A stretch of DNA of 64,000 bases from Desulfobacterales bacterium (GCA_963674755.2 CAXXVS010000002.1:640001-704000), one strand, 5' to 3'; positions 37,217 to 54,818 are shown, counted from the first letter of the stretch. The notes: generated by a model from the letters alone, not told the origin. Made by a program: numbers and translations.

Positions 37217-39343
37217 CTAGCGTCGTAAAATGCGCGTCGCGTTGGCCACGGCCAGCAGGGCCGTTCCCATATCCGCAAACACCGCCTCCCACATGGTGGC
37301 CATTCCGAAAGCCCCGAAAGCGATAAAAACGCCCTTCACCGCCAAGGCCAGGACGATGTTCTGCCATACAATGGCCCGGGTCTGTTTGGCGATGGCTACC
37401 GCTTCGGCCATTTTGACGGGGGTGTCCTTCATCAGAACCACATCGGCGGTTTCAACGGCGGCATCGCTGCCTAGGGCGCCCATGGCCAGGCCCACGTCGG
37501 CCCGGGCGATGACCGGCGCGTCGTTGATGCCGTCGCCCACAAAGGCGATCTTGCCATGGGGGTGGGATTGCGCGAAGTGTTCCAGGGCGGCCACCTTGTC
37601 TTCCGGCAGGAGGTCGGCCTGGAAGCTGTCCAGCGACAGCGTGTCGGCCACGGCCCGGGCGGCGCAGGCGTTGTCGCCGGTGAGCATGGCGATATGCGCG
37701 ACGCCCTGGTCGCGCAGGGCCTGCACGGCTTGACGGGCATCCGGCCGGATTTGATCGCCAATGGTGATGAAGCCGGCGTAGCGTCCGTCCACGACGATAT
37801 GGGCCACCGTATTGTCGAAGGTGCAGCGGTCGTGGGCCACGGATTCGCGGTGCAGGAGATGATCGTTGCCCACCAGAATATCCCGGTCCTTATAGCGGGC
37901 CGCCACGCCCTGTCCGGCAAGGTCGCGATGTCCGACGATTTGGGAGGAGTCCAATCGGCCGCCCCGCTTTTCGAAGGCCGTCACGATGGCGGCGGCAATA
38001 GGGTGGTCCGAGTGGGTTTCGGCCGCCGCCGCGAATTCCAATAGCGCTTCTTCGGAAACACCGTTGCCGCTGACCACGTCAGCGACTTCGAAGACCCCCC
38101 GGGTGAGGGTGCCGGTCTTGTCGAAGACTACCGTCTTGACCGCCGCCAGGACGTCGATATAGGTCGAGCCCTTCACCAGGATGCCCTTGCGCGAGGCCTT
38201 GCCGATACCGCCGAAGTAGCCCAGGGGGATGCTGATCACCAGAGCGCAGGGGCAGGAGATCACCAGGAGCACCAGGGCCCGGTAGATCCAGTCGCGAAAG
38301 GCATCACCCATCAGAAGCGGCGGAAGAAAAGCGACGGCCGCAGCGATGAGCACCACGGCGGGAGTGTAATAGCGGGCAAAGGTGGTGACGAATTTCTCGG
38401 TGCGCGCCTTGCGGGCGCTGGCGTTCTCCACCAGATTCATGATTCGGGCGATGGAGGATTCCCTGAAGGGACGCGTCACCGCGACGGTCAGGGCGCCGTT
38501 CAGGCAGATCTGGCCGGCCATGACCGCATCGCCGGTGCGGACCGATACGGGCACGGACTCGCCGGTCAGGGCCGCGGTGTCGATCTGGGAGCGACCTTCC
38601 AGCACTTGGCCGTCGAGGGGGATCTTCTGGCCCGGCTTGACCACGATGGTATCCCCCACCTGGACGGTTTCCGGAGCCACCGTGCGCAGCCCTTCCAGGG
38701 TCTTTACGTGAGCCTGGTCGGGCTTGGCGGCCAACAGGGCCCGGATCGAGCGGCGCGAATGGGAGACAGCCCGGTCCTGCAACAATTCGCCCACCTTGAA
38801 GAAGATCATGACCCCCACGGCTTCGGCATAGGCCTGGATGGCGATGGCCCCGCCCGTGGCGATCACCATCAGGACATTCTCGTCGAAGAAATCCCCCCGT
38901 TTGACGGTCCGCCAGGCGCCTGACAAAACATTGCCGCCCGCCATGAGATAGGCGGCCAAAACGACGAGCAATTCCCACGAAAGAGGGCCGGTGTGGCCCA
39001 GGCGGTCGCCGTAAACGAGAATCCATATGAAAAGAACGCCCGCCGCGGTCAGGAGAAAGCCTTCTTTTTTGCGATTGAGGCCCGCGGCACCATCGGCGGG
39101 AGCCGTCGTGGGCGCTGACGCGTCCGGGTCCACCAATTCCACATCCGGATCGATGGCGTGGGCGGCCTGCCGCACAGTTTCCGGGTCGTCGGCCCTTACC
39201 AGAAGGATTTGGTTGACGAAGTCCACCGCAGCGTCTTCCACGCCGGCGGTTTTTTTGAGACCGTCTTCGAGCTTGGCCGCACAGGCCGCGCAGTCGAGGT
39301 TTTTCAGGTGGAATTTTGTCAACGGGGGGGCTGCGGTCGTCAT
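37217..39343 (-). CDS. cadA: Heavy-metal (Zn/Cd/Pb) P1B-type ATPase
   Basis: LDCAAC HMA motif, TGES, SCPCAL, DKTGT, HP, GDGINDAP, EAVFAD. Confidence 0.93.
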   Translation of the reverse strand: MTTAAPPLTKFHLKNLDCAACAAKLEDGLKKTAGVEDAAVDFVNQILLVRADDPETVRQAAHAIDPDVELVDPDASAPTTAPADGAAGLNRKKEGFLLTAAGVLFIWILVYGDRLGHTGPLSWELLVVLAAYLMAGGNVLSGAWRTVKRGDFFDENVLMVIATGGAIAIQAYAEAVGVMIFFKVGELLQDRAVSHSRRSIRALLAAKPDQAHVKTLEGLRTVAPETVQVGDTIVVKPGQKIPLDGQVLEGRSQIDTAALTGESVPVSVRTGDAVMAGQICLNGALTVAVTRPFRESSIARIMNLVENASARKARTEKFVTTFARYYTPAVVLIAAAVAFLPPLLMGDAFRDWIYRALVLLVISCPCALVISIPLGYFGGIGKASRKGILVKGSTYIDVLAAVKTVVFDKTGTLTRGVFEVADVVSGNGVSEEALLEFAAAAETHSDHPIAAAIVTAFEKRGGRLDSSQIVGHRDLAGQGVAARYKDRDILVGNDHLLHRESVAHDRCTFDNTVAHIVVDGRYAGFITIGDQIRPDARQAVQALRDQGVAHIAMLTGDNACAARAVADTLSLDSFQADLLPEDKVAALEHFAQSHPHGKIAFVGDGINDAPVIARADVGLAMGALGSDAAVETADVVLMKDTPVKMAEAVAIAKQTRAIVWQNIVLALAVKGVFIAFGAFGMATMWEAVFADMGTALLAVANATRILRR

Positions 39344-39362
39344 CGTCGCTCCTGCATTCGGT

Positions 39363-39749
39363 TCAGGCTTCCAGAACGTGTTCCATTCCGAGATTGAGCA
39401 GGTTGCGGATGTGTTCGTCGTCCAGGGCGTAGTAGATCACCTTGCCCTCCCGACGGGCTTTGATCACCCGGGCCTGCTTGAGGTTTTTCAATTGGTGGGA
39501 GACCGCCGGCTGCTTCATCCGGAGCAGGGCGCAGAGGTCGCAGACGCACATCTCCGATTCGCTCAGGGCCCACAGAATCCCGATGCGCGTGCCGTCGCCG
39601 AACAGTTTGAAAAGGTCCGCAAGCGCATAGAGCCGGACCGGATCGGGCATGGCCTGCCGCACAGCCCGAATGAGGTTGTGATGGATGCCTTTGACGGCGC
39701 AGGTCTCGATGGCCTCCCGGGCCGGGGAATGTTGGGTGGTTTCGCTCAT
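39363..39749 (-). CDS. ArsR/SmtB-family metal-responsive repressor (CadC-like)
   Basis: FKLFGDGTR, EMCVCDL, AVSHQL, YALDDEH...EH. Confidence 0.92.
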   Translation of the reverse strand: MSETTQHSPAREAIETCAVKGIHHNLIRAVRQAMPDPVRLYALADLFKLFGDGTRIGILWALSESEMCVCDLCALLRMKQPAVSHQLKNLKQARVIKARREGKVIYYALDDEHIRNLLNLGMEHVLEA

Positions 39750-39776
39750 AGGGCCCCTGTCTGTGAAAGGTAAAAA

Positions 39777-39818
39777 ATTAATATATGAACATATATTAAT
39801 ATGAGTAGGCGGTGTCAA
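39777..39818 (-). promoter_or_regulatory. ArsR/SmtB operator overlapping a sigma70 promoter
   Basis: Perfect 11-2-11 inverted repeat ATTAATATATG-AA-CATATATTAAT (39777-39800); minus-strand TTGACA at 39818-39813. Confidence 0.8.
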
Positions 39819-42169: not shown

Positions 42170-45100
42170 CTATGTCTGAGTCGGAGGATTCTCGGGCCGG
42201 CCTTCCCATTTGATGATTTTCAGGTCCATCACAAAGATGGCATAGAGCACCGGCACCAACAGCAACTCGATAAAGGTGGCCAGGGACAGCCCGCCGATTT
42301 GGGCATAGCACAACGGCTGCCACAGCGGACCGCCGTGGATGGCCAGGGGGATCAGGGCCAGTACCGTGGCCCCCACCGTGATCATGATAGGCCGCAGGCG
42401 GATGATGCCGGCTTCCAGCAGGGATTCGCGCAGGGGCTCGCCTTCCTCGCTTTTTTGCTCGATGAAATCGAACAGCACGATCACGTGGCTCACGATCACG
42501 CCCACCAGACTGGCGATGCCCAGGAAGGCCATGAAGCCGAAAGGTTCGTTCATGAAGTCCAGGGCGGTCAGGGCGCCCACTGCGCCGTAAGGCACCGCGG
42601 CGAACACCAGAAGCGGCTTGACCGCGTTGTTGAATTGGATCACCAGGGCCAGGAAGATGAGGCCCATTGAAATGGCGAGCACGATAGAGAGGTTTCGGAA
42701 GCCCTTGGTCTGCTTGGCCTGCTCGCCGCCGATCACCATCTTGTAGCCGGGCGGCAGGGCCTTCTCAAATGCTTCCAGCTTGGGCAGGGCTGCCGCCATC
42801 ACCTCGGAGGCCAAGGCGCCGGGCACCGGGTAGCCCAGTACCTTCATGGTCCGGAAATGCTCCAGCCGGTTGATCCGGCCGGTTTGCATTTGATGGGCGA
42901 TTTGGGAGATGTCCAGCAGGGGCACCTTCTGGGTGCCTTGCGAGGAATAGATATACAGGTTGCGGATGCTGGAGAGGCGGGCCCTTTCTTCAGGCAGGAG
43001 GCGCACCAGCACGGGGATCTGCTTGTCCCCCTCAAGCAGGGTGGTCACCTGGATGCCGTTCATGGCGGCGGTGGAGGAGGCCGCCACGTCCTGGTTGGTG
43101 ACACCGGCCTGGTTGGCCCGGTCGGGATCGACCAGCAGCTTGACCTCAAAGCTCGCGGGACCCCAATCTTCGTGTATCCGGGCAGCCTGGGGCACGGCCT
43201 TGAGAATGTCGACGACCTGGCTGGCCAGGCGCCGCAGGGTCCTGATCTCTTCTTTACTCATCTGGGAGCTGATTTCCGAGCGGCCCGAAAGACGGATCTC
43301 GATGGGCACTTCCACCGGGTTGGTCTGCAACTGCCGCACGTTTATCCGGGCCCCGGCGATTTCGGCCGAAAGCCTTTTTTGCAAGGGCGCCACCAGAAGC
43401 GGGGTCTCCTCCTTTTCCTGCACCTCCACGATGAGTTGGGCGTAATTGATCTGGTGCAGCTGCGGCGTGAGCGAGAACCAGAAACGCGGGCTGCCGCCGC
43501 CCACAAACGTGGTTATGGATTTCAGTATCTGACGCGGCTGGCCCTTGCGGTCCGGATGCGCCCTGCCGTAGCGCGCGATCTCATCCTCCACCAGGGCGGC
43601 GGCCCTTTGGGCGGTCCGATCGCTGGAAGACAGGGGCGCGTTATTGGGCAGCCACACGTCGATGTAAAAGAGATATTGGATGTCGTCCGGGAAAAAGGCC
43701 ACTTTGAGCTGCCTGGCCTCCCAGACGCCGAAGATCAGAAAGGCCAGCGAGCAGACGAACACCATCCAGCGGTGCTTGATGGCGGCGGCGCCCACCCGGT
43801 AGTAAACGCCGCTGAAGCCTTTTCGGGTGCGCTCTTCAATGGAAGGCTCCGGTTTTTGGGATGGACGCAGGACGTAATAGCCCAGCAGCGGCAGGAAGGT
43901 CATGGAGACCAGGCGCGAGGCGATCAGGGTGCACGCCATGACAATGGGCAGGCTGTGAAGGAAAGTGCCTGTATTGCCTTGCAGGAGCAGAAAGGGCAGA
44001 TAGGCCACGATGTTGGTGATCGTGGCGAACATGATGGCCTTGGCCAGTTTGGTGGGCCCCAGCCAGGAGGCGAGAGACGGCGGGTGGCCGGCGGCCAAGT
44101 CCCGCTTGATGGCGTCGCCGGCCACAATCGGATCGTCCACCAATAAGCCCAAAGCGATGATAAGGGTGGCGATGGAGACCTGCTGGAGATCGATGCCCAG
44201 CATGTAGATCATGGCAAAGGTCATGGCCAGGGTGATGGGGATGCATGCCGCCATGAGCAGAGCCGAGCGCCACTCCCAAAAGCCGAGCAACGCCACGATC
44301 ACCACCAGAATGATGGCCTCATACAGGGCGGTCATGAACAGGTCGATGTTTTCCCTGACCTGTTGCGGCTGATTGGAGGTCTTGGCGATGATCAGATCAT
44401 CGGGCAGGCGCTGCTTCAGTTGGTTCAAGGCCCGGTCGATGGCCTTCCCGAACTGGTTGATCTGTTCATTCTTGTGCATCTGGATGGCCAGGGTGATGGC
44501 CCGGGTGCGGATCCAGTTGCCGCTGGGGTCTTTCCTGGAGAAATAGTTCAGAAAGCGGGGCGGGCTCTGGTAGGAAGCGTAAATGTCCACCAGGTCGCGT
44601 AAATAAACCGGGATGCCGCTGGAGGTGGCGGTGATGATCACATCACCGATTTCCCGGGCGTTTTTGAACTGACCCGAGGGATCGATGGTGATATCGGTGT
44701 CATCGATTTGAAGCACCCCGCCGGGCAGCGTAATGTTGCGCGCGTTCAGGATGCTCTTGATCTTGTCGGGCTGCACCCCGTAAGACGCCAGCTTCTCCTG
44801 GGAATAGGCCAGATAGACCTGCTGGGGCAGTACCCCTGAGCGGTCCACTTTGGCGACCTGGGGTACGCCCTGCACGGTACGCTCGATCAGGTCGGTGATA
44901 TCATCCAGTTCCTGATAGGTGTATTTATCCCCGGCAATTTGAGTGAGCCTGGTCGCGGTTGTGCTTAGGTCTCTTATCGCGATGGACGGCCAGGCATCGG
45001 GGTGAATCCCGGACAGGCCCAGCCGGTCCCGGGCATACTTGTCCGCAAAAGCCAGCACGGCCTGCTCGCCGGCCCGGGTTTCCATATCCAGCCCCACGAA

Positions 45101-45826
45101 GCCAGGCCCTTGAATGGGGCGGACATCGCGGCCGATGCCTTTCGCCCTGAGGCCCCCCGCCAGCAGATCCCGCAACTTGAGCGGAATGGTGGGATCGACC
45201 GCGCGCGCCAAAGGCGTCACCACGGCCATGCGCGAATTCAAGCGTCCGGCCGGAATCCCTGTGCGGATCGCTTCGATGGCCCTGTTGATATCACGGGCCC
45301 GTAGGGCGATCTCCACCGGGCCTTCTTTCGGACTGGCCACAGTGAGCATCAGGGCGGCGGTTTCGCCGAATCCGCTGTTGAACTGGATGGGGCCGGCCCC
45401 TTGGGGCAGGTTGGCATTAAGGGCGTTCAATTTGAGGTTGATGTCATTGAACGCTATTTCCGTCTCCGTGACATCATCGCCCAGCTGAATCTGAAGTACA
45501 GCCAGACCGGGCAGGGTGAAAGACTTGATACCGTATGTGTCGGCGGCGGGTTTGTGGATGGCCGAACTGGTGGCGACGGTGGCCTCCACCGGCCGGGTGA
45601 CCAGTTGCTCCACTTTTTCAGCGCTGACCCCGGGCCAGGGGATAACCGCGGTGGCAACCTTCACGGGTATGACGGGATCCTTCAGTTTGGGGATGTGGGC
45701 ATAGCCGTAAAACCCGGCCAGGAACACGGCCAGCAACAAAACACAGGAGACGTGCCGGTTCACGGTGAAGAACCGGGCGGCATTGTGCTTTTCCTGAATC
45801 AGTTCGGCTTCGCTTCGGTATGCCAC
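42170..45826 (-). CDS. RND efflux permease (AcrB/AcrD/AcrF family), unusually long
   Basis: WPGVSAEKVEQLVT, ALGLLVDD, two TM bundles, RLRPIMIT, PVLY; GTG start at 45826 inferred. Confidence 0.9.
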   Translation of the reverse strand: MAYRSEAELIQEKHNAARFFTVNRHVSCVLLLAVFLAGFYGYAHIPKLKDPVIPVKVATAVIPWPGVSAEKVEQLVTRPVEATVATSSAIHKPAADTYGIKSFTLPGLAVLQIQLGDDVTETEIAFNDINLKLNALNANLPQGAGPIQFNSGFGETAALMLTVASPKEGPVEIALRARDINRAIEAIRTGIPAGRLNSRMAVVTPLARAVDPTIPLKLRDLLAGGLRAKGIGRDVRPIQGPGFVGLDMETRAGEQAVLAFADKYARDRLGLSGIHPDAWPSIAIRDLSTTATRLTQIAGDKYTYQELDDITDLIERTVQGVPQVAKVDRSGVLPQQVYLAYSQEKLASYGVQPDKIKSILNARNITLPGGVLQIDDTDITIDPSGQFKNAREIGDVIITATSSGIPVYLRDLVDIYASYQSPPRFLNYFSRKDPSGNWIRTRAITLAIQMHKNEQINQFGKAIDRALNQLKQRLPDDLIIAKTSNQPQQVRENIDLFMTALYEAIILVVIVALLGFWEWRSALLMAACIPITLAMTFAMIYMLGIDLQQVSIATLIIALGLLVDDPIVAGDAIKRDLAAGHPPSLASWLGPTKLAKAIMFATITNIVAYLPFLLLQGNTGTFLHSLPIVMACTLIASRLVSMTFLPLLGYYVLRPSQKPEPSIEERTRKGFSGVYYRVGAAAIKHRWMVFVCSLAFLIFGVWEARQLKVAFFPDDIQYLFYIDVWLPNNAPLSSSDRTAQRAAALVEDEIARYGRAHPDRKGQPRQILKSITTFVGGGSPRFWFSLTPQLHQINYAQLIVEVQEKEETPLLVAPLQKRLSAEIAGARINVRQLQTNPVEVPIEIRLSGRSEISSQMSKEEIRTLRRLASQVVDILKAVPQAARIHEDWGPASFEVKLLVDPDRANQAGVTNQDVAASSTAAMNGIQVTTLLEGDKQIPVLVRLLPEERARLSSIRNLYIYSSQGTQKVPLLDISQIAHQMQTGRINRLEHFRTMKVLGYPVPGALASEVMAAALPKLEAFEKALPPGYKMVIGGEQAKQTKGFRNLSIVLAISMGLIFLALVIQFNNAVKPLLVFAAVPYGAVGALTALDFMNEPFGFMAFLGIASLVGVIVSHVIVLFDFIEQKSEEGEPLRESLLEAGIIRLRPIMITVGATVLALIPLAIHGGPLWQPLCYAQIGGLSLATFIELLLVPVLYAIFVMDLKIIKWEGRPENPPTQT

Positions 45827-45842
45827 CTTACCATCCCGGCGC

Positions 45843-46967
45843 CTATGGAATGACGCGCACCTTTTCACCGTCGGCGACCATGCTGGCGCCTGTCACAATA
45901 ACGCGCTCACCAAGGGCTACCCCATGGGTGACCGCGATCATATTGCCGGCCACTTGGCCCAGGCCCACGTCCCGGAGCCGCGCCACCTGGTTCCCTCCCT
46001 GATCCTGCACGACATAGACGGCATAGCCGTCGGGATCGCTTTGGGAACTCACCACCGCGGCGATGGGTATCATCATGAGGGCGGGCAGGGGCGCCCGCGA
46101 GCCTAAATCCAGAGAAGCGATCATACCGGGCTTGAGCCGGTTCTGCGGATTGGGGATGGTGAGTTCCACCTCGAAAACCCGCACCTGGGTGTTGGCCGCC
46201 GGGGAGATCGCCGTGATTTTGCCCTCGAAAGGGGTGTTGGGAATGGACTCGGTGACCACGGCCAATGGTTCGCCCATTTTCAGATCTTTGAGGATGAGGC
46301 CCGGCACACCGAACACGGCCTTCACCGAAGTCACATCGGAGAGCACAAAACCCACCGCCCCGATGCCCACCAGATCGCCTACTTCGATGTTGCGCTGCAG
46401 GATGACGCCCGGGCCGGGGGCTTTCAAGTCGCAATACCCCAGGTTGATGTTGGCGTCCTTGAGCTGGGCTCGGGCGCCATCCACCTGGGCCTGGGCCACC
46501 CCCAGCTCCTGCACGGCGGAATCATAGTCCGGCTTGGTGAGGCTCTGACTGGCGTAAAGGGCTTCAGCCCGGGCGAAGTCTTGCTGAGCTTTTTTAAGCG
46601 ATGCCAGGGCGGAGGCCAGCTGGGCCTGGGCCTCCCGCACTTTCTGCTGGTAGGTGCCGGGGTCCACCCTGGCCAGCACGGTGTTCGGGCTTACCTCGTC
46701 GCCCTGTTGCAGGTTCCGCCGACGGCCGTCCGCGCCCTTTTTCTGCTGAATGCTTTTGATGTAGCCGCCTGCTTGAAAGGCCAGGTTGACCTGGCTGTAA
46801 GGGGCTATGTTGGCCGAGTAGCGCAGTGCGTCTTTCAGGGAACGTTCGGTCACCGTAGCGACCCGCACGGGGCGCAAGGGGATTTCATAGCTCTCCTGGC
46901 GCTCGCAGCCTGCTAGGAGCAGCACGCCGATCAACAGCGCGCTTGACAGTATGGTGATGGCCCTCAT
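45843..46967 (-). CDS. RND periplasmic adaptor (membrane fusion lipoprotein)
   Basis: Lipobox LLAGC, LAFQAGGYI, coiled-coil hairpin, LKPGM, G.RVIV.G. Confidence 0.9.
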   Translation of the reverse strand: MRAITILSSALLIGVLLLAGCERQESYEIPLRPVRVATVTERSLKDALRYSANIAPYSQVNLAFQAGGYIKSIQQKKGADGRRRNLQQGDEVSPNTVLARVDPGTYQQKVREAQAQLASALASLKKAQQDFARAEALYASQSLTKPDYDSAVQELGVAQAQVDGARAQLKDANINLGYCDLKAPGPGVILQRNIEVGDLVGIGAVGFVLSDVTSVKAVFGVPGLILKDLKMGEPLAVVTESIPNTPFEGKITAISPAANTQVRVFEVELTIPNPQNRLKPGMIASLDLGSRAPLPALMMIPIAAVVSSQSDPDGYAVYVVQDQGGNQVARLRDVGLGQVAGNMIAVTHGVALGERVIVTGASMVADGEKVRVIP

Positions 46968-48308
46968 TTACGCCTCTCCCAACGCGTTTTCGAAGGCCGC
47001 CTTGGTTTTCCAAAACCCCAGCAGGGCGTCCTCATATTGCCGGTTGGCCTCCATCACATCGGTTTCCGCCTGCAAGAGGTTTTCCAAAAGAACCGTCTTC
47101 TGCCCGAACTGCTGCAGGGCGATCCGCAGCTTTTCACGGGCCGTCGCCCTGGACAAGGCGGCCACTTTCAAGCGGGCCCTGGCCTCATTCAACTTGCGGC
47201 CGATCTTGTTGACCTGGAGGATCACATGGTCCTGGGTCTCCTTGACATTGTTCTTAGCCGTTTGGATATCCCTGCTTCGGGCGGCCAGCTCACTTTGCTT
47301 GCGTCCCCAGTCGTAAAATTCCCATCGCAGCAAGAGGCCTATTGTGGCCACGTCATTGGGTAGCAACTCCACGTTGTACAGCTTGTCGTAGTTGGCTTTG
47401 AACCACAGGTCGGGGATGTATTCGGATTTTTTGATGCGGCGGTTGTGCTCGGCATAACGCAGCTTGAGTTGACTCTCCTTTATCTCCGGACGCTGCGCCA
47501 AAGCCAGGGCCTGGGCTGCCTCCAGATCGACCTCATAGTCGGTGCGGGGCGGTACCTGGATCACGTTGAAGGGGGTGGTAATGTCGCGCCCCATCAGGTT
47601 GTTGAGCTGCTCCTTGACATCGGCCAGATCGTTTTTGTGGGTCAGCGCCTGAAGTTCAGCCTTGGCCAGGCGGGTTTTCACTTCCAGTTGCTCCGATTTA
47701 AGCACGGTCTGCTCCTGAAGGTAGCGCTCCGTCAGTGCATCCAACTCGCGGTAGAAGATGATGGACTCTTCGATGGCCGCCAGCGCGCTTTGCTTTTGCA
47801 GCACTTGATAGTAGGCGTCTTTAACCTCCTTGGCGACGGATTGCTGCTTGGCCCGTAATTCCTCCGCGGCCATTTCTTTTTTTATACGGCGCTGCTCCAC
47901 CGAAAGGTCGATGCGGTAGAGTTGCGAAAGCGGCTGGCTCAGGGTGGCTGAAAGCGCCGTGGTGAAACCGATTTGGGTATCGACCTCGACATTTTCCGGC
48001 GGTACCGGGCCGATTTCCTTATAGGTGCCCCAGGTGCCTCTGCTGAATTCGTAGGATTGCCGGGTGAGATTATAGGATTCCAAGCCGTTGAAATGGAGAG
48101 AGGGGAAGAATCTGGTGGTTGCCGCATCGATGGCGTCGGCGGCTTTTTGCACCTCCAATCCGGCGTTTTGCACCCCGAGATTGTTTTGATAAGCCAGCTC
48201 CAGGGCCTGGTCAAGCGAGAGCATAGCGGCCTGACCGGCATGCGATGCATGGCTGACGGCACAAGAGATCGTCAGCAATAGGAATAAAATGGCCGCCAAT
48301 CGAACCAT
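46968..48308 (-). CDS. TolC-family outer membrane efflux protein
   Basis: LSLDQALELAYQNN, AYYQVL, RPE, YIP, DWG, LENLLQAE; AGGAGG RBS before ATG 48308. Confidence 0.88.
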   Translation of the reverse strand: MVRLAAILFLLLTISCAVSHASHAGQAAMLSLDQALELAYQNNLGVQNAGLEVQKAADAIDAATTRFFPSLHFNGLESYNLTRQSYEFSRGTWGTYKEIGPVPPENVEVDTQIGFTTALSATLSQPLSQLYRIDLSVEQRRIKKEMAAEELRAKQQSVAKEVKDAYYQVLQKQSALAAIEESIIFYRELDALTERYLQEQTVLKSEQLEVKTRLAKAELQALTHKNDLADVKEQLNNLMGRDITTPFNVIQVPPRTDYEVDLEAAQALALAQRPEIKESQLKLRYAEHNRRIKKSEYIPDLWFKANYDKLYNVELLPNDVATIGLLLRWEFYDWGRKQSELAARSRDIQTAKNNVKETQDHVILQVNKIGRKLNEARARLKVAALSRATAREKLRIALQQFGQKTVLLENLLQAETDVMEANRQYEDALLGFWKTKAAFENALGEA

Positions 48309-48917
48309 GCCCCCTCCTACGGAACCCGTGCTTTCAGTCATTGCCGCGTGTCGCCGGCATCGCTTGCGGATGCCTCGCGCCGCACCGTTTCCGAGTGCGG
48401 TGTCGAAGATGATTTCTCCTGAATCGGAAAACGGGCAAGGGGGCGCAGGGCTTTGGTGGACCGGCATTGCTGTGGATAACACGGACCGCCGGCATCGCGC
48501 TAAGGCGTGGCAGAAGATGTGGTCGCCCGGTTCCCGTGCGCAAGGTTGGGCTGGATAGTGTGGCGGGAGCGAAAATCGTCTTTCCGGTTTCGCGATCCCA
48601 CCCGAAACCAACCCTTTCCCTCCTTTTCAGTTTCATCGATACCAAAGAAGGGCGATTTGGTAAAGCCTCCGTCTTGCTTACGAGGTCCCGGCGGTCGCAG
48701 ACTGACGCGTTGATATGCGTAAAAGTTGAATTTTAGGGCTGCGCCGCGCATCGCCCGGCGTTTTGCCCGGGACTTGATCGCTTAGAGAAAACGCATCCAT
48801 GCGCGTCACGGACGATACGTCACGACGACATTGGCGATCATTCCCCCCTACAATGTTTTCGCAGTCGGCCTGACAGGTTGGGACTGTTCGGCACCTTGGC
48901 CCGAGGCGATGCGATTT

Positions 48918-49610
48918 CTATGGTTTTTTCATCATGACGTTCGCGATGTAATCATAGAGTTCCTTGACCTTGGCCGGCGGCAGGGAGGATTCCGGAAAGG
49001 CGGGCATGGGGGCCGCCGGATGGTTCAGCCAGAATTGCAGGGTTACCTGATTGGCCAGCAGGGGGGAGTTTAGAAGCGGTTTGCTGGGATCGATCGCGTT
49101 GCCCCCGCTGGGGTGGCAGGCGGCACAGCTCACCGCATAGATATCCTGCCCCGCCCGGTACTGGGGGGGGCCCTCGATCGTATCGCCGCCGAAGGTCAAT
49201 TGACCGCCGAAATATCCCAGAACCACCACCGCCATGACGCACAGCAGATAAAGCGGCATCACCCTTGCCGAAGCCGCGCCGAATTTACGCCCCAGATAGA
49301 TGCTCAGCGCGAGCAGCACCAACAGGACGAAGGCGGTGACCAGTTTGATCTTGATCGGAAGAATCCAGCCCCCGGCGTAAAAATGCTGCCAATCCATCAG
49401 CCCCAGGATTATGGTCGGGAAAAGCCAGATAAATGCCAGGATAAGGCAGCTTTGCGGCACCAGGGCAAGCTTCTGGCGTCGAAAGATGAGCGCAATCGCC
49501 GCAAAAATAAAGGCGCCGACGATCAACCCGATCGGCATGTGCACTTCCGTGGGATGGACGGGATGATGATAGCCGATCTTACTCAAAAGGTCGTAAAAGG
49601 CGTTGATCAT
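48918..49610 (-). CDS. Integral membrane (DUF2231-like) protein fused to a monoheme cytochrome c
   Basis: HPTEVHMPIG, 4 TMs, GYFGGQL, then CAACH...MPAF. Confidence 0.8.
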   Translation of the reverse strand: MINAFYDLLSKIGYHHPVHPTEVHMPIGLIVGAFIFAAIALIFRRQKLALVPQSCLILAFIWLFPTIILGLMDWQHFYAGGWILPIKIKLVTAFVLLVLLALSIYLGRKFGAASARVMPLYLLCVMAVVVLGYFGGQLTFGGDTIEGPPQYRAGQDIYAVSCAACHPSGGNAIDPSKPLLNSPLLANQVTLQFWLNHPAAPMPAFPESSLPPAKVKELYDYIANVMMKKP

Positions 49611-49649
49611 GGTTCCGACTCCTTCAATCTATCGTGCCGATTTCAGTTT

Positions 49650-50483
49650 TCAATAGGCCGAGTGCATGAAACCGCTTTGTTTGTTGACGTTGATTTTGTC
49701 CACCAGAGAATTCTCCCGGGTGACGATCCGAACCTCAAAATAGGTTCCCTTGTCGGTTATCTTGCCCACTTTGAGATTGGGGTTGTGCATGCCCTCCAGG
49801 AAGGCCTGCACCCGCTGCCGGGCGCCATCTTTGTCCAGAGGGGCCGACGGCCGGCCGTGATAGGGGCCGCCGTAACCGGGATATCCTGGCGGAGCGCCGT
49901 AGCCGGGTCCCATCATCCCCGGCCCCATGCCGTAGCCGCCTCCCATCATTCCCGGTCCCATGCCATAGCCGCGTCCCATCATCCCCGGCCCCATGCCATA
50001 GCCGCGCCCCATCATCCCCGGCCCCATACCATAACCGGGCCCCATCATGCCGGGCCCCATACCGTAGCCGGGCGCGCCGTAGCCGGGCGGCGTCTGCGGT
50101 GAACGCGCGCCGCCCTGGGCCCAGCGCGGAAGCTCTTTGTTGAGGTATGCGAACAGATCCTTGGCCTGGCCCTCCGAGACCAGCGACTCGGTGATCGGCG
50201 GCATCGGCCCCATGGATCCGTCGGGCAGGGTGGGATGACGGATAAAAGTGAGAAACGAGGAGAAGTCTTTCAATTGCGGAGACCCCACCAGGGGCATGGC
50301 GGGGTAGAAGCGGTTTGCCCCGTTTGGGTGGCACATGGCGCAACGCGCCGCAAACAGTGCCGCTGCACTATCTGCGGAATCAGGTGTACCGGTGGGGACC
50401 GGTGGGTTGCTGTCGTCGGCCGGGGCGTGCACAGCCAAAACCGCCAGCAATAAGCACAAACTGATGAATATCGTAGGTCTCAT
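49650..50483 (-). CDS. Exported monoheme cytochrome c with Gly/Met-rich repeats and a small C-terminal domain
   Basis: Signal peptide, CAMCH...MPP, (GYGMGPGMMGx)5, C-terminal NPNLKVGKI...I.T.E.SLVDKI.VNK.SG. Confidence 0.8.
   Translation of the reverse strand: MRPTIFISLCLLLAVLAVHAPADDSNPPVPTGTPDSADSAAALFAARCAMCHPNGANRFYPAMPLVGSPQLKDFSSFLTFIRHPTLPDGSMGPMPPITESLVSEGQAKDLFAYLNKELPRWAQGGARSPQTPPGYGAPGYGMGPGMMGPGYGMGPGMMGRGYGMGPGMMGRGYGMGPGMMGGGYGMGPGMMGPGYGAPPGYPGYGGPYHGRPSAPLDKDGARQRVQAFLEGMHNPNLKVGKITDKGTYFEVRIVTRENSLVDKINVNKQSGFMHSAY
49905..50069 (-). repeat. Five 33-bp coding tandem repeats (GYGMGPGMMGx)
   Basis: Directly visible; synonymous variation between units. Confidence 0.9.
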
Positions 50484-50743
50484 CTACTACCTCAGTCAGG
50501 TGGCCGGTTACCAGTATGCCAAATGAAAATGGAATGGATATCGATTTGTGCCCGGGGTCATTTCCGGTTGGCTGGTGTCCGCTTGATAGGAGAGGCGCGC
50601 GTCGGGCATCCAGCCGCGTTGATAGAACTTCACCCGGGGGTGGGTATGGTCTGTGGCCATTCGCCTTGCATTCCGGTCGCCGGCAACGTTTTCCCGGTCC
50701 AGGCAACAAACCCAAAAGTCATTAATTTTATATGCCTACCCGA

Positions 50744-50760
50744 TTGCAAGCCAGGCACCA
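50744..50760 (-). promoter_or_regulatory. Possible sigma54 promoter for the leftward cytochrome genes
   Basis: Minus-strand TGGTGCC-TGGC-TTGCA, GG-N10-GC; imperfect -24 element. Confidence 0.4.
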
Positions 50761-51154
50761 ATGGGGTGTATCATGGGTTTGAGGGGTTGATCCAACGTAT
50801 TTCCGCTGCGCTCCTACGCACCGTCGACCGGACGTGCAGCGCCTGCATCAGCTTTGTATCGGTGCCGGTTGGCAGCCGACGGTTCCTGCGAGCAGAGGCG
50901 CCACCGGCCATTCAACCGGACAAAAACGTTCCGTTTTCCCCCGTGGAATACATATCGCGTGCCGGTCGAATGGGGTGCGCACCGTATAGGCCGATCCGCC
51001 TTTTTCTTCTACAAGGCTCGACATGGAGGAAACATTTGCTCACGGAGCGACGCTCGAATGGGCGCCGTCCATCCTCACCCGTCCAGGGGGGCAGGCGGTC
51101 CCCCAGGCAGCCCATCATAATGCGTTCTTCACCCTATCGAAAGGAAGGATATTC

Positions 51155-51511
51155 ATGAAGAAAACAGCCCTTCTGCTTTGCCTGTTGATCGCGGGTGCCG
51201 GTTGGATTGCCGCCACCAGTTGGGCGGACAGTCTTCTCGAACAGGGGAAACAGGTCTACGATACCAACTGCGTGCTGTGCCATGGCCAGAACGGCAAGGG
51301 CGACGGGATCGCCGCCGCGGCGCTCAATCCCAAACCGGCCAACTACACCAAAGAATCCTTCTGGACGAGCGACGCTGCCAAGAATATTCCCTCAACCATC
51401 AAGCACGGCAAGGGCCAAATGCCGCCTTTTGCCCTGGATGAGGCCTCCATCAAGGCTGTGATCTACTACATCGAGCATACCTTCAAACCGGCCGATGCCC
51501 CCAAGCCGTGA
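51155..51511 (+). CDS. Periplasmic monoheme cytochrome c
   Basis: AAGGAAGG RBS, signal peptide, CVLCHG..GKGDG, P.PAN, MPPF. Confidence 0.9.
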   Translation: MKKTALLLCLLIAGAGWIAATSWADSLLEQGKQVYDTNCVLCHGQNGKGDGIAAAALNPKPANYTKESFWTSDAAKNIPSTIKHGKGQMPPFALDEASIKAVIYYIEHTFKPADAPKP

Positions 51512-51749
51512 CCACCAGCGGCAATACACGGCGGCAGGCCGGGAGATCGCACTCCGGCGGAATGAAACCGTTCTGCGCATGAAGCAGCCCCATTTCCCTC
51601 CTGAATCCGGCTACCCGTTCATTCCATCGTGCCACGTTGGGCCCTGACGGCAGGGTCGTTGCAGAAGAATAACCGATCCTGCCGGCAGGTCTGTTTTCAT
51701 CATCCAATCCACTGAACGCCGCGAGGCGCAACATGAAAGGAGCGATGCA

Positions 51750-53081
51750 ATGTACCGGCATGGATTCAAACCAACCTTAATGGTCCTGACGCTATCCATG
51801 GGGATGTTTTTTTTATCCAGGGCAACCGTCCTGGCGCTTCCCAGCTATGCCCGCCAGACAGGGATGTCCTGCAATTTATGCCATACCGCTTTCCCGGAGG
51901 TCACTTCCTTTGGAAGAACGTTCAAGGCCAGCGGCTACACGCTTTCCCAAATGAAAAAAATCCAGTCTCCCGAAACCGCCAGCCTGGCACCCCTGGAACT
52001 CAACGACACCCTGCCGCTCTCGGCCATGATCCAGGTCGCCGACACCAGTACCGACAAATCCCAACCCGGCACCCAGAACAACGATGTGCAGTTTCCCCAG
52101 CAGCTCAGCCTGTTTCTGGCCGGTGAAATTACGCCCCACATCGGCAGCTTCCTGCAGGTGACATACACCCAGGTCGACGACAATATAACCATGGACAACA
52201 CCGACCTGCGTTTTGCGGACCAGACGCAGCTTGGCGGCAAGCCCCTGGTCTACGGATTGACCCTCAACAACAACCCCACCGTGGAAGACCTCTGGAACTC
52301 CACCCCGGCCTGGGGCTTTCCCTACGCCGGGCCGGATGTGGCCCCGGCCCCGGCCGCCGGTGCCGTTATCGACGGTGCCCTGGCCCAGGAGGTCGCCGGC
52401 CTGGGCGGCTATGCCTTCTGGGACAACAGTTACTACGCGGCGGTGGCCTTCTACCGCTCGGCCCAGATCGGCGGGACATCGCCGCCGGACGATACCAGCA
52501 CAGACACGGTTGACAATACGGTGCCCTACTGGCGGCTGGCCTGGCAGCACACCATGCCGGACAGTTATTTCGAGCTTGGCACCTATGGTCTCTATGCCGA
52601 GCTATATCCCGACGGCATACACGGCAACACGGACCGCTACACGGACTACGGGTTCGATGCGTCCTACGGCAAACGCTTCGGTAACGACCACTTGAGCCTG
52701 CACGCCACCTATATCTATGAAGATCAAAACCTGAAGGCCTCCGCCCCCCTGGACACGGATCACCATTTGAATACCTACCGCCTGGACGCCAGTTATTACC
52801 TGAACGGCATCGTGGGGCTGACGGCCGCTTTTTTCAACATCGACGGCGATTCCAATCCGTCGGTGTATTCGCCGTCGCCGCTGGACGGGAGCCGCAACGG
52901 CAAACCGGACAGCCAGGGCTGGATCGGCCAGATCAGCTATTTTCCCTGGCAGAATGTGCGCCTCTCGGCCCAATACACCTGGTATACCAAATTCAATGGG
53001 GCCAGCAACAACTACGACGGCTTCGGACGGGATGCGAGCGATAACAACACGCTGTATCTGCTCGCCTGGCTGATGTGGTAG
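51750..53081 (+). CDS. Cyc2-like outer-membrane porin-cytochrome c fusion
   Basis: Signal peptide, then ALPSYARQTGMSCNLCHTAFPEVTSFGRTFKASGY; single CxxCH; beta-strand-rich body; aromatic C-terminus DNNTLYLLAWLMW. Confidence 0.85.
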   Translation: MYRHGFKPTLMVLTLSMGMFFLSRATVLALPSYARQTGMSCNLCHTAFPEVTSFGRTFKASGYTLSQMKKIQSPETASLAPLELNDTLPLSAMIQVADTSTDKSQPGTQNNDVQFPQQLSLFLAGEITPHIGSFLQVTYTQVDDNITMDNTDLRFADQTQLGGKPLVYGLTLNNNPTVEDLWNSTPAWGFPYAGPDVAPAPAAGAVIDGALAQEVAGLGGYAFWDNSYYAAVAFYRSAQIGGTSPPDDTSTDTVDNTVPYWRLAWQHTMPDSYFELGTYGLYAELYPDGIHGNTDRYTDYGFDASYGKRFGNDHLSLHATYIYEDQNLKASAPLDTDHHLNTYRLDASYYLNGIVGLTAAFFNIDGDSNPSVYSPSPLDGSRNGKPDSQGWIGQISYFPWQNVRLSAQYTWYTKFNGASNNYDGFGRDASDNNTLYLLAWLMW

Positions 53082-53144
53082 CCGATAAACGAAACCCGAA
53101 CCGGCGGAAGCTGCGAACCGGAAAATCCGGAAGGAACCGCGAGA

Positions 53145-53807
53145 ATGAATGGCAAAACCGTAAGGCTGTTGATTTTGGCACTGGGGTTCTTTTGGCTGGC
53201 ACCGCTCAACATCCAAGCGGCTGAGGGGGCCGAACCGCCTGCCGGCGGCGCCGAGAGCACCTCCATTGAAGCGCTGCGCCATGAGGTCGAGATGTTGAAG
53301 CAAACGGTGCGTCGGTTGGAGGAGGTGATTTCCGAGATGGAAAAGCAGCCCTCTCATCCGAAGGCACCCCTGGAGAGTACCACGCCGAGGCCGGTCGACA
53401 AGACAGCGCCCGCAGCGGTCCCGGCCGTCCAGGAAGCCACCGGGCCACCAGCGGCGGCTGCGGCAGAACCATCGGCGCTTCCTGACACCGGCCGCGGCAG
53501 CTCATCCGCAACGGTCCCGGCCGCCCAGGAAGCCACCGAAACGCCCGCGGCGGCCGCTGCCGTGACAGCGACTCCCGGCAATACCGCCAACAGCGCGCCC
53601 TCCCTTTCTCAGCAGTGGCGCAGCATCGAACGCGGCATGGGCGCTGAACAGATCGAGGCGCTTTTGGGAGCGCCGCAACAAAAATTTTCGGTGGGTGGGA
53701 ATACCGTCTGGTACTACCAGTATCCGAACAACCGAAGGGGATCGGTCACGTTCTCTGGAGACAGGCAGGTCTCCGGCTGGCAAAAACCCCCCTTTGGCGG
53801 CTTTTAA
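53145..53807 (+). CDS. Exported protein with coiled coil, Ala/Pro linker and SmpA/BamE-like C-terminal domain
   Basis: Signal peptide; GMGAEQIEALLGAP...VWYY; duplicated VPA.QEAT segment. Confidence 0.65.
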   Translation: MNGKTVRLLILALGFFWLAPLNIQAAEGAEPPAGGAESTSIEALRHEVEMLKQTVRRLEEVISEMEKQPSHPKAPLESTTPRPVDKTAPAAVPAVQEATGPPAAAAAEPSALPDTGRGSSSATVPAAQEATETPAAAAAVTATPGNTANSAPSLSQQWRSIERGMGAEQIEALLGAPQQKFSVGGNTVWYYQYPNNRRGSVTFSGDRQVSGWQKPPFGGF

Positions 53808-54086
53808 TTCTTCGCCGCTTGCGGCGTTCGATGGCCTTTATCGATACCCCGCTGCTTTGCGACGGGGTCGTTCATCGCTTCTGCGGTTTGTAATGGCCCA
53901 ATCCGGAAGATGACCGGATGCTGTGGCAGGCCAACACCGGCCGCGTAGCGCGGGACAGCCGTCCACAAGACCCGCAACCCTTCCACGGATGCGGGACACC
54001 TGAGGGATAGGTCTTTCAACAATCCTTGAAATGGCCGGAACCGAAGCCATCGCAAATCGGAAGTAAAAAAGGGGAGCAAGCCGCTT

Positions 54087-54818
54087 ATGAACTCCGACGG
54101 GGCGGGAGATATGCCGCATCAACAAATCGCATCAGAGATCGATCAACACGCTCGCAAGGTACAGGTGATTGAATTAGCCGTTTTCCTGTTCCTGATCGTA
54201 CCGCCCATGGCGACCTCGTTTTTGATCAGTGGCCAATCGAATCTGGGATTTAAGACCGGCGCCACTTTTTCCATCCTGAACGATCTGGGCCTGGTCAGTC
54301 TCATCTTCTACTTTATCTGGCGCAACAGGGAATCTCTGCACAGCATCGGATTGACCCGGCGAAACTTCCCCAAGGAAGTTCTCTGGGGTCTGGTGCTGTT
54401 TCTTCCGATCATGTATGCCACCAATCTGCTGAGCGGCGTCCTGCATGGGGCCGGTTTTTCAGCACCAACCAAACTGCCTTCCTTCCTTGTCGCCAAGGGC
54501 CATGCGGGACTGTTGCTGGCGGTGGTTATGGTCATCGTCGTGGCCTTCGTGGAGGAGACCATTTTCCGCGGCTACCTCATTCGGCGGTTTAAATCCGCTA
54601 CCCAACACCCGTGGGTCGCCGTGCTTTTTTCGTCGCTGGTCTTTTCCCTCGGACATGGCTACGAAGGCATGTCGGGGGTGATCAGTATTTTTTGCCTGGG
54701 GGCGGTGCTGGCCGTTATCTACCTGTGGCGTAAAAGTCTTGTGGCACCGATGGTCATCCATTTCTGCATCGATTTCAGCAGCATTGTATTGGCGGCCTGG
54801 CTGATGATGGGCACATGA
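54087..54818 (+). CDS. CPBP (CAAX/Abi) intramembrane metalloprotease
   Basis: EETIFRGY, FSLGHGY, PMVIHF. Confidence 0.88.
   Translation: MNSDGAGDMPHQQIASEIDQHARKVQVIELAVFLFLIVPPMATSFLISGQSNLGFKTGATFSILNDLGLVSLIFYFIWRNRESLHSIGLTRRNFPKEVLWGLVLFLPIMYATNLLSGVLHGAGFSAPTKLPSFLVAKGHAGLLLAVVMVIVVAFVEETIFRGYLIRRFKSATQHPWVAVLFSSLVFSLGHGYEGMSGVISIFCLGAVLAVIYLWRKSLVAPMVIHFCIDFSSIVLAAWLMMGT

Follow-up and report, generated by a model that had tools for sequence, protein, structure and literature searches.

The locus described here raises the question of whether a sulfate-reducing bacterium encodes a complete path for electrons across its cell envelope and, if so, in which direction and with what substrate it works. 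It occupies positions 48918..53807 of a 64,000-nucleotide stretch of DNA from a Desulfobacterales bacterium (GCA_963674755.2 CAXXVS010000002.1:640001-704000; this whole stretch is called the window, and positions are counted from its first letter). An earlier note, made from the sequence alone, had proposed that a porin-cytochrome resembling Cyc2, the outer-membrane Fe(II) oxidase of iron oxidisers, is encoded here beside three other monoheme cytochromes, as a trans-envelope conduit in an anaerobe. The analysis reported here identifies a true Cyc2-family protein and a conserved unit of three cytochromes, namely Cyc2, the cytochrome that starts at 51155 and the DUF2231-cytochrome c that starts at 49610. 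We propose, with a confidence somewhat short of even, that these form a three-step wire that would take electrons from dissolved Fe(II) into the cell and deliver them to oxygen-reducing enzymes.

A Cyc2-family cytochrome-porin and its neighbours

The heme c proteins of the locus are the following:

51750..53081, plus strand: Cyc2-family fused monoheme cytochrome-porin, 443 residues (motif, AlphaFold2, Foldseek)
51155..51511, plus strand: periplasmic monoheme class I cytochrome c, 118 residues (PF13442, E 1e-12; PF00034, E 5e-11)
48918..49610, minus strand: inner-membrane DUF2231 with a C-terminal class I cytochrome c fusion (PF09990, E 2e-9; four transmembrane stretches)
49650..50483, minus strand: exported monoheme cytochrome c, accessory, which also contains a repeat rich in Gly/Met and a small domain at the C-terminus

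All four reading frames had been recognised in the earlier note, and each has one CxxCH motif and a Shine-Dalgarno-like site; three begin with a signal-like hydrophobic stretch and the fourth, the fusion, has four transmembrane stretches. The genes do not form a single string but two divergent units: 50483-49650 followed by 49610-48918 on the minus strand, and 51155-51511, 51750-53081 and 53145-53807 on the plus strand. An assembly artefact can be dismissed, since a contig from a second study (run X3) spans 47095-52833 with 59 differences and zero gaps; run X1 matches without any difference and may be the source of the assembly. In the comparison with a congener (genome G004), the ratio of nonsynonymous to synonymous substitution rates (dN/dS) is 0.11 for Cyc2, 0.16 for cytochrome 51155 and 0.17 for the DUF2231 domain; the three core genes are under purifying selection. 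A promoter and terminator scan of the locus gave results at about chance level, its GC content carries no island signal, and no RNA data containing it are listed.

The features by which Cyc2 is recognised, as given in the accessible text of Keffer et al. 2021 (10.1101/228056 / PMC8406198), are AXPXFAR[Q/K][T/Y] before CXXCH, a PXL motif, a length of at least 365 residues and a 16-strand barrel. The protein encoded at 51750 reads ALPSYARQT-GMS-CNLCH-TAF-PEV; it therefore has the first motif followed by CXXCH, with Tyr in place of Phe, an exchange that is also present in 23/89 rows of the comparison set. It also has a single N-terminal CXXCH, a signal peptide and more than the minimal length. 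At the PXL position, four residues past CXXCH, it has PEV, in a column where Leu reaches at least 90% in 103 homologs. The signal peptide covers residues 1-28 (the hydrophobic N-terminus being residues 10-30), the heme domain approximately residues 29-65, with CNLCH at 41-45, and the predicted barrel approximately residues 90-443. Structure prediction, which the earlier note had suggested as a check, was carried out with AlphaFold2 on the 103 homologs and gave 16 long strands (pLDDT 84, pTM 0.83); a Foldseek search with this model returned porins (E 1e-10 to 1e-7), with OprO/OprP at a template-modelling score of ~0.5, so that the protein fits a predicted 16-strand OprO/OprP-like porin barrel. 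The barrel is acidic, with 39 D/E versus 15 K/R, and contains conserved Asp/Glu residues; Met93, 99% conserved, is a candidate sixth (distal) heme ligand. This gene is the sole copy in the host genome (G000), and Pfam, NCBIfam and PDB sequence searches returned no family or match. On its motif, single CxxCH and predicted barrel, 51750-53081 is a true Cyc2-family cytochrome-porin, as had been suspected.

According to the accessible text of 10.1101/228056, the Cyc2 of A. ferrooxidans (Cluster 2) and Cyc2PV-1 of Mariprofundus (Cluster 1) likewise have a signal peptide, AxPx(F/Y)ARQT and a single CxxCH, and they share with the present protein a 16-strand OprO/P-like barrel (predicted here) and an adjacent periplasmic cytochrome c. 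The present protein differs by the exchanges of Phe to Tyr and of PxL to PEV, by its sulfate-reducing host and by the membrane partner, which is a DUF2231-cytochrome c here and, as far as these sources go, rusticyanin/aa3, bc1 or alternative complex III (ACIII) in the classical systems.

Three cytochromes are conserved together

The distribution of the locus was followed in a sample of 401 genomes of the order, to which two genomes (G405, the same as L005, and G406, the same as L002) were added from a wider locus search. Close full-length Cyc2 matches were found in 4/401 genomes (G000, G004, G266 and G386), and Cyc2 of this type in 1/12 congeners; in 13 more of the 401 genomes the match is distant and confined to the N-terminal part, and several of these proteins belong to the ARKY type. 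All six genomes that have this Cyc2 (the four above, G405 and G406) carry dsrA, and in all six a homolog of cytochrome 51155 lies directly beside Cyc2. The gene for the DUF2231-cytochrome c lies ~2 kb or less from Cyc2 in five of them and ~9 kb away in G406, apparently on the same contig, as judged by equal length; in G266 and G386 the three genes form a co-directional string in the order cytochrome c, Cyc2, DUF2231-cytochrome c. These three cytochromes are the conserved unit. Synteny of all four had been suggested as a check, and it holds for three in the six genomes; cytochrome 50483 is present in the second-study contig of the same species and missing at this place in G004, G266, G386 and L005. 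A four-cytochrome chain was thus rejected because 50483, found in this species only, is not conserved; it is a local add-on. In its heme domain it resembles the DUF2231 fusion (hhalign to the alignment of the fusion, A2: 99.5%, E 4e-22).

When the 401 genomes were searched with the DUF2231-cytochrome c, the four best matches were the four Cyc2 genomes. In a tree of 32 rows, built from the top matches only and not from all 83 genomes with homologs, five Cyc2-linked copies fall in one 100/100 subclade (7/32 rows) together with unlinked copies from G291 and G372. Their Cyc2 partners belong to two lineages, those of G266 and G386 grouping with a proteobacterial plasmid type and the others with a soil clade; a single Cyc2 clade was rejected with a p-AU of 0.005 (LG+G4, 30/83 rows, in a test run after the first tree had been inspected). 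Since the partners come from two lineages, the pairing either arose twice or survived a swap of the barrel.

Relatives of the cytochrome-porin

The Cyc2 family is large, with 6030 matches among 7999 candidates scored. The closest 80 genome loci are mostly from Acidobacteria, and also from Binatia, Gammaproteobacteria, Bacteroidota and Gemmatimonadota; the Acidobacteria and Binatia loci (L003-L080) belong to the same Cyc2 clade, at 45-58% identity. Named homologs on plasmids, with 30-42% full-length identity, occur in Caballeronia, Ralstonia, Paraburkholderia, Ideonella, Methylocystis, Acidiphilium, a lichen-associated Polymorphobacter and a plasmid of A. ferrooxidans. Indirectly, these relatives point to the Cluster 2 side as the likely place of Cyc2 51750, because the Burkholderiales, Methylocystis and Acidiphilium among them are taxa around A. 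ferrooxidans Cyc2 (AfCyc2), the canonical AfCyc2 itself lying outside the comparison. In the part of PMC10654088 that could be consulted, Burkholderiales, Hyphomicrobiales and Acidiphilium are placed around AfCyc2, but Acidobacteria are also named there as neighbours of Cyc572, which speaks against this placement. Cluster 2 genes are also present in heterotrophic Leptothrix/Sphaerotilus, according to the accessible text of PMC11412304. Within the tree, Cyc2 51750 appears to sit in a soil/wetland clade that lacks functionally characterised members.

For comparison, six proteins of the Cyt572 type (YPGFARKYNF) were retrieved with a published N-terminal peptide (PMC13741234, accessible part). By BLAST they match Cyc2 51750 over the first 42-88 residues only (E 1e-4 to 1e-6, 89-sequence set), and full-length likeness was rejected, a result that rules out closeness to Cyt572 and not to all of Cluster 3. 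The closeness to classical validated iron oxidases implied by the earlier note is not supported by this comparison. Leptospirillum Cyt572 (Cluster 3) has the family architecture and the heme-motif region in common with Cyc2 51750, and differs in its ARKY motif type and its mature length of 516-548 residues.

Two further observations concern the family. On the A. ferrooxidans plasmid (L111:2588-8186), the non-canonical Cyc2 homolog and a cytochrome c lie beside a transposase, and the same locus carries two U32 peptidase genes and SCP2, a set that we take to be ubiUVT-like. Distant Cyc2-like porin-cytochromes of the ARKY type occur in other Desulfobacterales (L102:7013-10816, L103:7061-10922, L105:2580-7860, L106:1540-8860 and L109:3877-5247), where they adjoin diheme cytochromes, cupredoxin-like proteins or an octaheme/cytochrome b set; two genomes with such genes, G271 and G293, also carry a bo3 oxidase.

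The periplasmic and inner-membrane partners

Cytochrome 51155 has the heme site CVLCH, and the Met of its GQMPP segment is the predicted distal ligand. It had been described as soluble; since it has a signal peptide, it is placed in the periplasm. The small cytochromes are predicted to be His/Met-ligated, and such cytochromes usually have a high potential. In the fusion, the four transmembrane stretches noticed earlier correspond to DUF2231, and the outer membrane-periplasm-inner membrane layout first suggested for the locus is supported. The model of this protein is a four-helix bundle (pLDDT 90.5), and the residues conserved in alignment A2 (H16/H19/H24, H76, D73, W74 and K89) are all at the predicted periplasmic face, the orientation following from the positive-inside rule. 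A di-heme membrane cytochrome b of the b561 or bc type was rejected for DUF2231, the conserved His residues (16, 19, 24 and 76) being only at that face. An Atlas search gave no usable match for the DUF2231 part, and nothing related was found in a literature search on DUF2231 and cytochromes.

Elsewhere, too, DUF2231 is found repeatedly together with a heme carrier where O2-reducing chains begin. A stand-alone DUF2231 gene lies 1-2 kb upstream of 17/23 matches to A-type oxidase subunit I, and in four such operons the order is DUF2231-DOMON-SCO-coxI-III-IV-II-ctaB (Desulfobacterales, L172:5006-8733, L173:4926-8586, L175:5000-8675 and L176:4829-8384); this head is a candidate cytochrome c-free electron input to A-type oxidases. 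At three other loci (L144:6612-8227, L145:6861-8383 and L146:7406-8928), a rubrerythrin with an N-terminal signal-like sequence is encoded directly upstream of a DUF2231-cytochrome c, and at L005:898-1539 a signal-like rubrerythrin lies ~3 kb from one; the pair could possibly serve a periplasmic peroxide defence fed from the membrane. The host has two further DUF2231 genes (G000:C3:370391-371371 and C3:1187616-1188467), one fused to three rubredoxin-like repeats, apparently with the opposite membrane orientation, and the other to a different cytochrome c.

Outside the Desulfobacterota, other proteins seem to fill the slot of the inner-membrane partner. Partner families in the 80 related loci were delimited as rough single-linkage clusters and named by Pfam on representatives; Rieske and cytochrome b proteins are encoded near a Cyc2 of the same clade in 38/80 loci and ACIII in 9/80, and some redox partner is present in 54/66 loci that have at least 3.5 kb downstream. 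The Acidobacteria and Binatia clusters thus likewise encode a periplasmic carrier and an inner-membrane partner together, but with a multi-subunit quinone complex where the present locus has one 230-residue DUF2231-cytochrome c. In two Binatia loci (L003:6482-11427 and L007:8356-13277), genes for Cyc2, a BamE-like protein, cytochrome c, an Fe-S flavoprotein, Rieske, cytochrome b and a pentaheme cytochrome form one string, with an anammox-like bc complex.

The host and its oxygen reductases

The host genome, 97% complete, contains dsrA over the cut-off, dsrB and a dsrD-like gene, the last recognised from its sequence. It has three COX1-family genes, belonging to a cbb3-like oxidase in an ACIII-type operon, a bo3 oxidase (cyoABCDE) and a qNor beside narGHJI, together with three bd oxidases and a cytochrome b/Rieske locus. 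Judged by gene content, the host is a sulfate reducer and not a strict anaerobe; the anaerobe assumed at the outset does not agree with a genome that encodes five O2 reductases together with Nar and qNor. At G000:C1:279355-289569 the ACIII-type genes run straight into the cbb3-like oxidase operon, and at G000:C1:1043033-1047253 cytochrome b, a Rieske match and an 807-residue octaheme protein are encoded in a row. The names that databases give to its proteins point to Desulfobacterales/Desulfosarcinaceae-like kin. Sequencing runs that contain part of the window include rhizosphere and marine sediment metagenomes, of which one, X9, was aligned with it. An MtrAB/MtoAB/PioAB conduit was rejected, given that the locus has monoheme cytochromes only and that the MtrB/PioB-type porin (PF11854) has no match in G000.

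The bo3-type cyoB is present in 12/401 genomes (10 over the cut-off and 2 split) and in 4/4 of those with this Cyc2; in the genus, which has 10 members in the sample, it was found in G000 and G004 only. G405 and G406 also have cyo operons, and in G266 the module has cyoABCDE 2.5 kb upstream. A ccoN-like gene is present in 6/6 module genomes, a weak co-occurrence because 153/401 genomes carry one, all under the TIGR00780 cut-off. Nitrate is not a general acceptor, as narG was found in only 3/5 module genomes (in a search at the level of G000, G004, G266, G386 and G405, G406 lying outside it). Ubiquinone synthesis is not supported as the reason for bo3: UbiB-like matches are under the cut-off, and the G000 gene is outside a ubi cluster.

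Direction and substrate of the putative wire

In the inward wire that we favour, Fe2+ would enter the acidic pore of Cyc2 and reduce its heme, the heme domain being predicted on the periplasmic side of the barrel. Cytochrome 51155 would shuttle the electron to the membrane-anchored DUF2231-cytochrome c, which may pass it to the cbb3-like oxidase and may also join the pool of cytochromes to that of quinones. An organotrophic sulfate reducer living at oxic-anoxic interfaces would likely use the wire to remove O2 or to gain additional energy, and not to grow on iron.

Several points weigh against this proposal. Dissolved Fe(II) is scarce in sulfidic habitats, and the nearest named Cyc2 homologs come from heterotrophs that are mostly not known iron oxidisers. 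The validated Cyt572 type is not close to Cyc2 51750, in a comparison made without Cluster 1 or the canonical A. ferrooxidans sequence. The DUF2231 gene is divergent from Cyc2 in G000, and likewise in G004 and G405; homologs of DUF2231 (with or without cytochrome c) occur in 83/401 genomes, nearly all without this Cyc2, and sister copies of the fusion in G291, G372 and G266-C20 have an exported rubrerythrin as their neighbour instead. The cytoplasmic face of DUF2231 has no His, Foldseek with the DUF2231-cytochrome c gave no match at E <=0.001 (the best rows, OmcF/c6, concern the heme domain), and VIA-align returned generic four-helix bundles only (Z <=13.8, helical-bundle background); with no cytoplasmic His and no fold match above background, the redox role of DUF2231 is inferred from its neighbours only. 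The Fisher p of the association between Cyc2 and bo3, 5e-7, or 2e-5 with G000 and G004 counted once, is overstated because kin are not independent and share a niche, and the association may mark merely a shared O2-exposed niche. Lastly, direction cannot be read from family or sequence: in the accessible text of the cited studies all Cyc2 assayed oxidised Fe(II) (10.1101/228056; 10.64898/2026.03.26.714105; PMC13692758), but their potentials span from +208 mV (10.1101/228056) to -130 mV (PMC13692758).

A bolder version of the inward wire, which we regard as doubtful, takes DUF2231 as a minimal quinone-cytochrome c oxidoreductase replacing complex III, and the trio as the most compact wire to span the whole envelope; sulfate reducers that carry bo3 would have gained it on two or more occasions and would use it for Fe(II) oxidation with O2 or nitrate at root and sediment redox interfaces.

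Alternatively, the wire could run outward as an electron sink, menaquinol being oxidised at DUF2231 and the electrons passing through the cytochromes and Cyc2 to Fe(III) in soluble chelates or to further small acceptors outside the cell. A quinol-to-periplasm donor fits the position of DUF2231 at the head of oxidase operons and next to exported rubrerythrins, as well as its invariant Asp and Lys on the periplasmic face, which we presume to recall the quinol site of NrfH/CymA; transfer from menaquinol to a His/Met cytochrome c is downhill, and no porin of the MtrB/PioB type was found in G000. However, the module co-occurs with O2 reductases and not with a recognisable metal-reduction set, and the accessible text of the cited studies describes no Cyc2 acting as a reductase, so we judge outward transfer unlikely.

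A third explanation, equally unlikely in our view, keeps the wire and changes the substrate: it would oxidise or sense another small reductant or metal, such as humic quinols, Cu, Mn or sulfur species, in defence against oxidative stress. The Gly/Met repeats of 50483 resemble, we assume, Cu-binding repeats, and many heterotrophs of soils and bacteria associated with plants carry a Cyc2 of this clade; Keffer et al. (10.1101/228056) caution that verification is lacking for much of Clusters 2 and 3. On the other side, the acidic barrel with its conserved Asp/Glu fits a cation substrate, and Fe(II) is what the assayed Cyc2 proteins of the cited studies oxidise.

That there is no shared chain, Cyc2 and its cytochrome c having entered an island of microaerobic lifestyle genes by gene transfer while the DUF2231-cytochrome c serves oxidases or rubrerythrin alone, would agree with the patchy Cyc2 distribution, the variable gene order, the 9 kb gap in G406, the commonness of DUF2231 without Cyc2 and a frameshift after approximately residue 183 of the G004 fusion, but is quite unlikely in view of the co-location in 6/6 genomes, of two Cyc2 lineages joined to one DUF2231-cytochrome c subclade, of the tight co-directional strings in G266 and G386 and of purifying selection, and the G004 break may be an assembly error because narG and cyoB of that genome are frameshifted too.

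Other features of the locus and its surroundings

The remaining features in and next to the locus are:

49896..50070, strand not assigned: 33-bp tandem repeat, 5.3 copies (Tandem Repeats Finder score 245)
53145..53807, plus strand: exported coiled-coil and BamE-like protein, non-heme (PF04355, E 2e-4, under the curated cut-off)
54087..54818, plus strand: CAAX/CPBP intramembrane protease (PF02517, E 1e-22)

The tandem repeat encodes the GYGMGPGMMG repeats of the 50483 protein. The BamE-like gene, which the earlier note left undescribed, has a ribosome-binding-like site; such a gene follows Cyc2 in 11/80 related loci, from Desulfobacterota, Binatia, Gammaproteobacteria and Bacteroidota, and was not found beside Cyc2 in L005, G266 and G386. 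The CAAX/CPBP protease is near Cyc2 in 4/6 module genomes (G000, G004, L002 and G266). A ~60-bp element after the BamE-like gene (window 53813-53875) matches many unrelated contigs in the sequencing runs compared and is likely a small dispersed repeat. On the other side, a resistance-nodulation-division (RND) efflux system with an AcrB-type protein, a membrane fusion protein (MFP) and an outer-membrane factor adjoins the module (window 42170-48290) and is missing there in G004. Further away (window 37217-39818) lie a heavy-metal P-type ATPase-like gene and an ArsR-like regulator, an assignment that uses the N-terminal sequence alone.

Implications for sulfate reducers and for the Cyc2 family

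Cyc2 in non-classical hosts is already known (10.64898/2026.03.26.714105; PMC9769843). The Cyc2 of 'Ca. Mariimomonas ferrooxydans', from an anoxic-sediment lineage in an order with Dsr-Apr-Sat, oxidised Fe(II) when expressed in E. coli (10.64898/2026.03.26.714105), so that Cyc2 in an anaerobe is not new as such; that protein is of Cluster 3 type and from Nitrospirota, and the accessible text mentions no DUF2231 partner. Cyc2 homologs have also been described in 22 metagenome-assembled genomes of 12 phyla (PMC9769843), and PMC9426519 and PMC12400630, where accessible, mention the gene as a marker only. Among sulfate reducers, the cc(o/b)o3 system of Desulfovibrio vulgaris similarly has a monoheme cytochrome, c553, that feeds a heme-copper O2 reductase in oxygen protection, and differs in that the accessible part of its description mentions neither outer-membrane input nor DUF2231 (PMC4383621). 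A literature search, mostly of open-access work, did not find a module of Cyc2, cytochrome c and DUF2231-cytochrome c in sulfate reducers or its tie to bo3.

Cyc2 serves as a marker for iron oxidisers, though most of the family is functionally uncharacterised. The three-gene unit is small enough for rebuilding in E. coli or liposomes, and it makes testable both the role of Cyc2 outside the classical iron oxidisers and that of DUF2231, a domain tied to O2-reducing chains. If the inward transfer of electrons from Fe(II) proves true, sulfate reducers would contribute to the oxidative half of iron cycling where oxic and anoxic zones meet.

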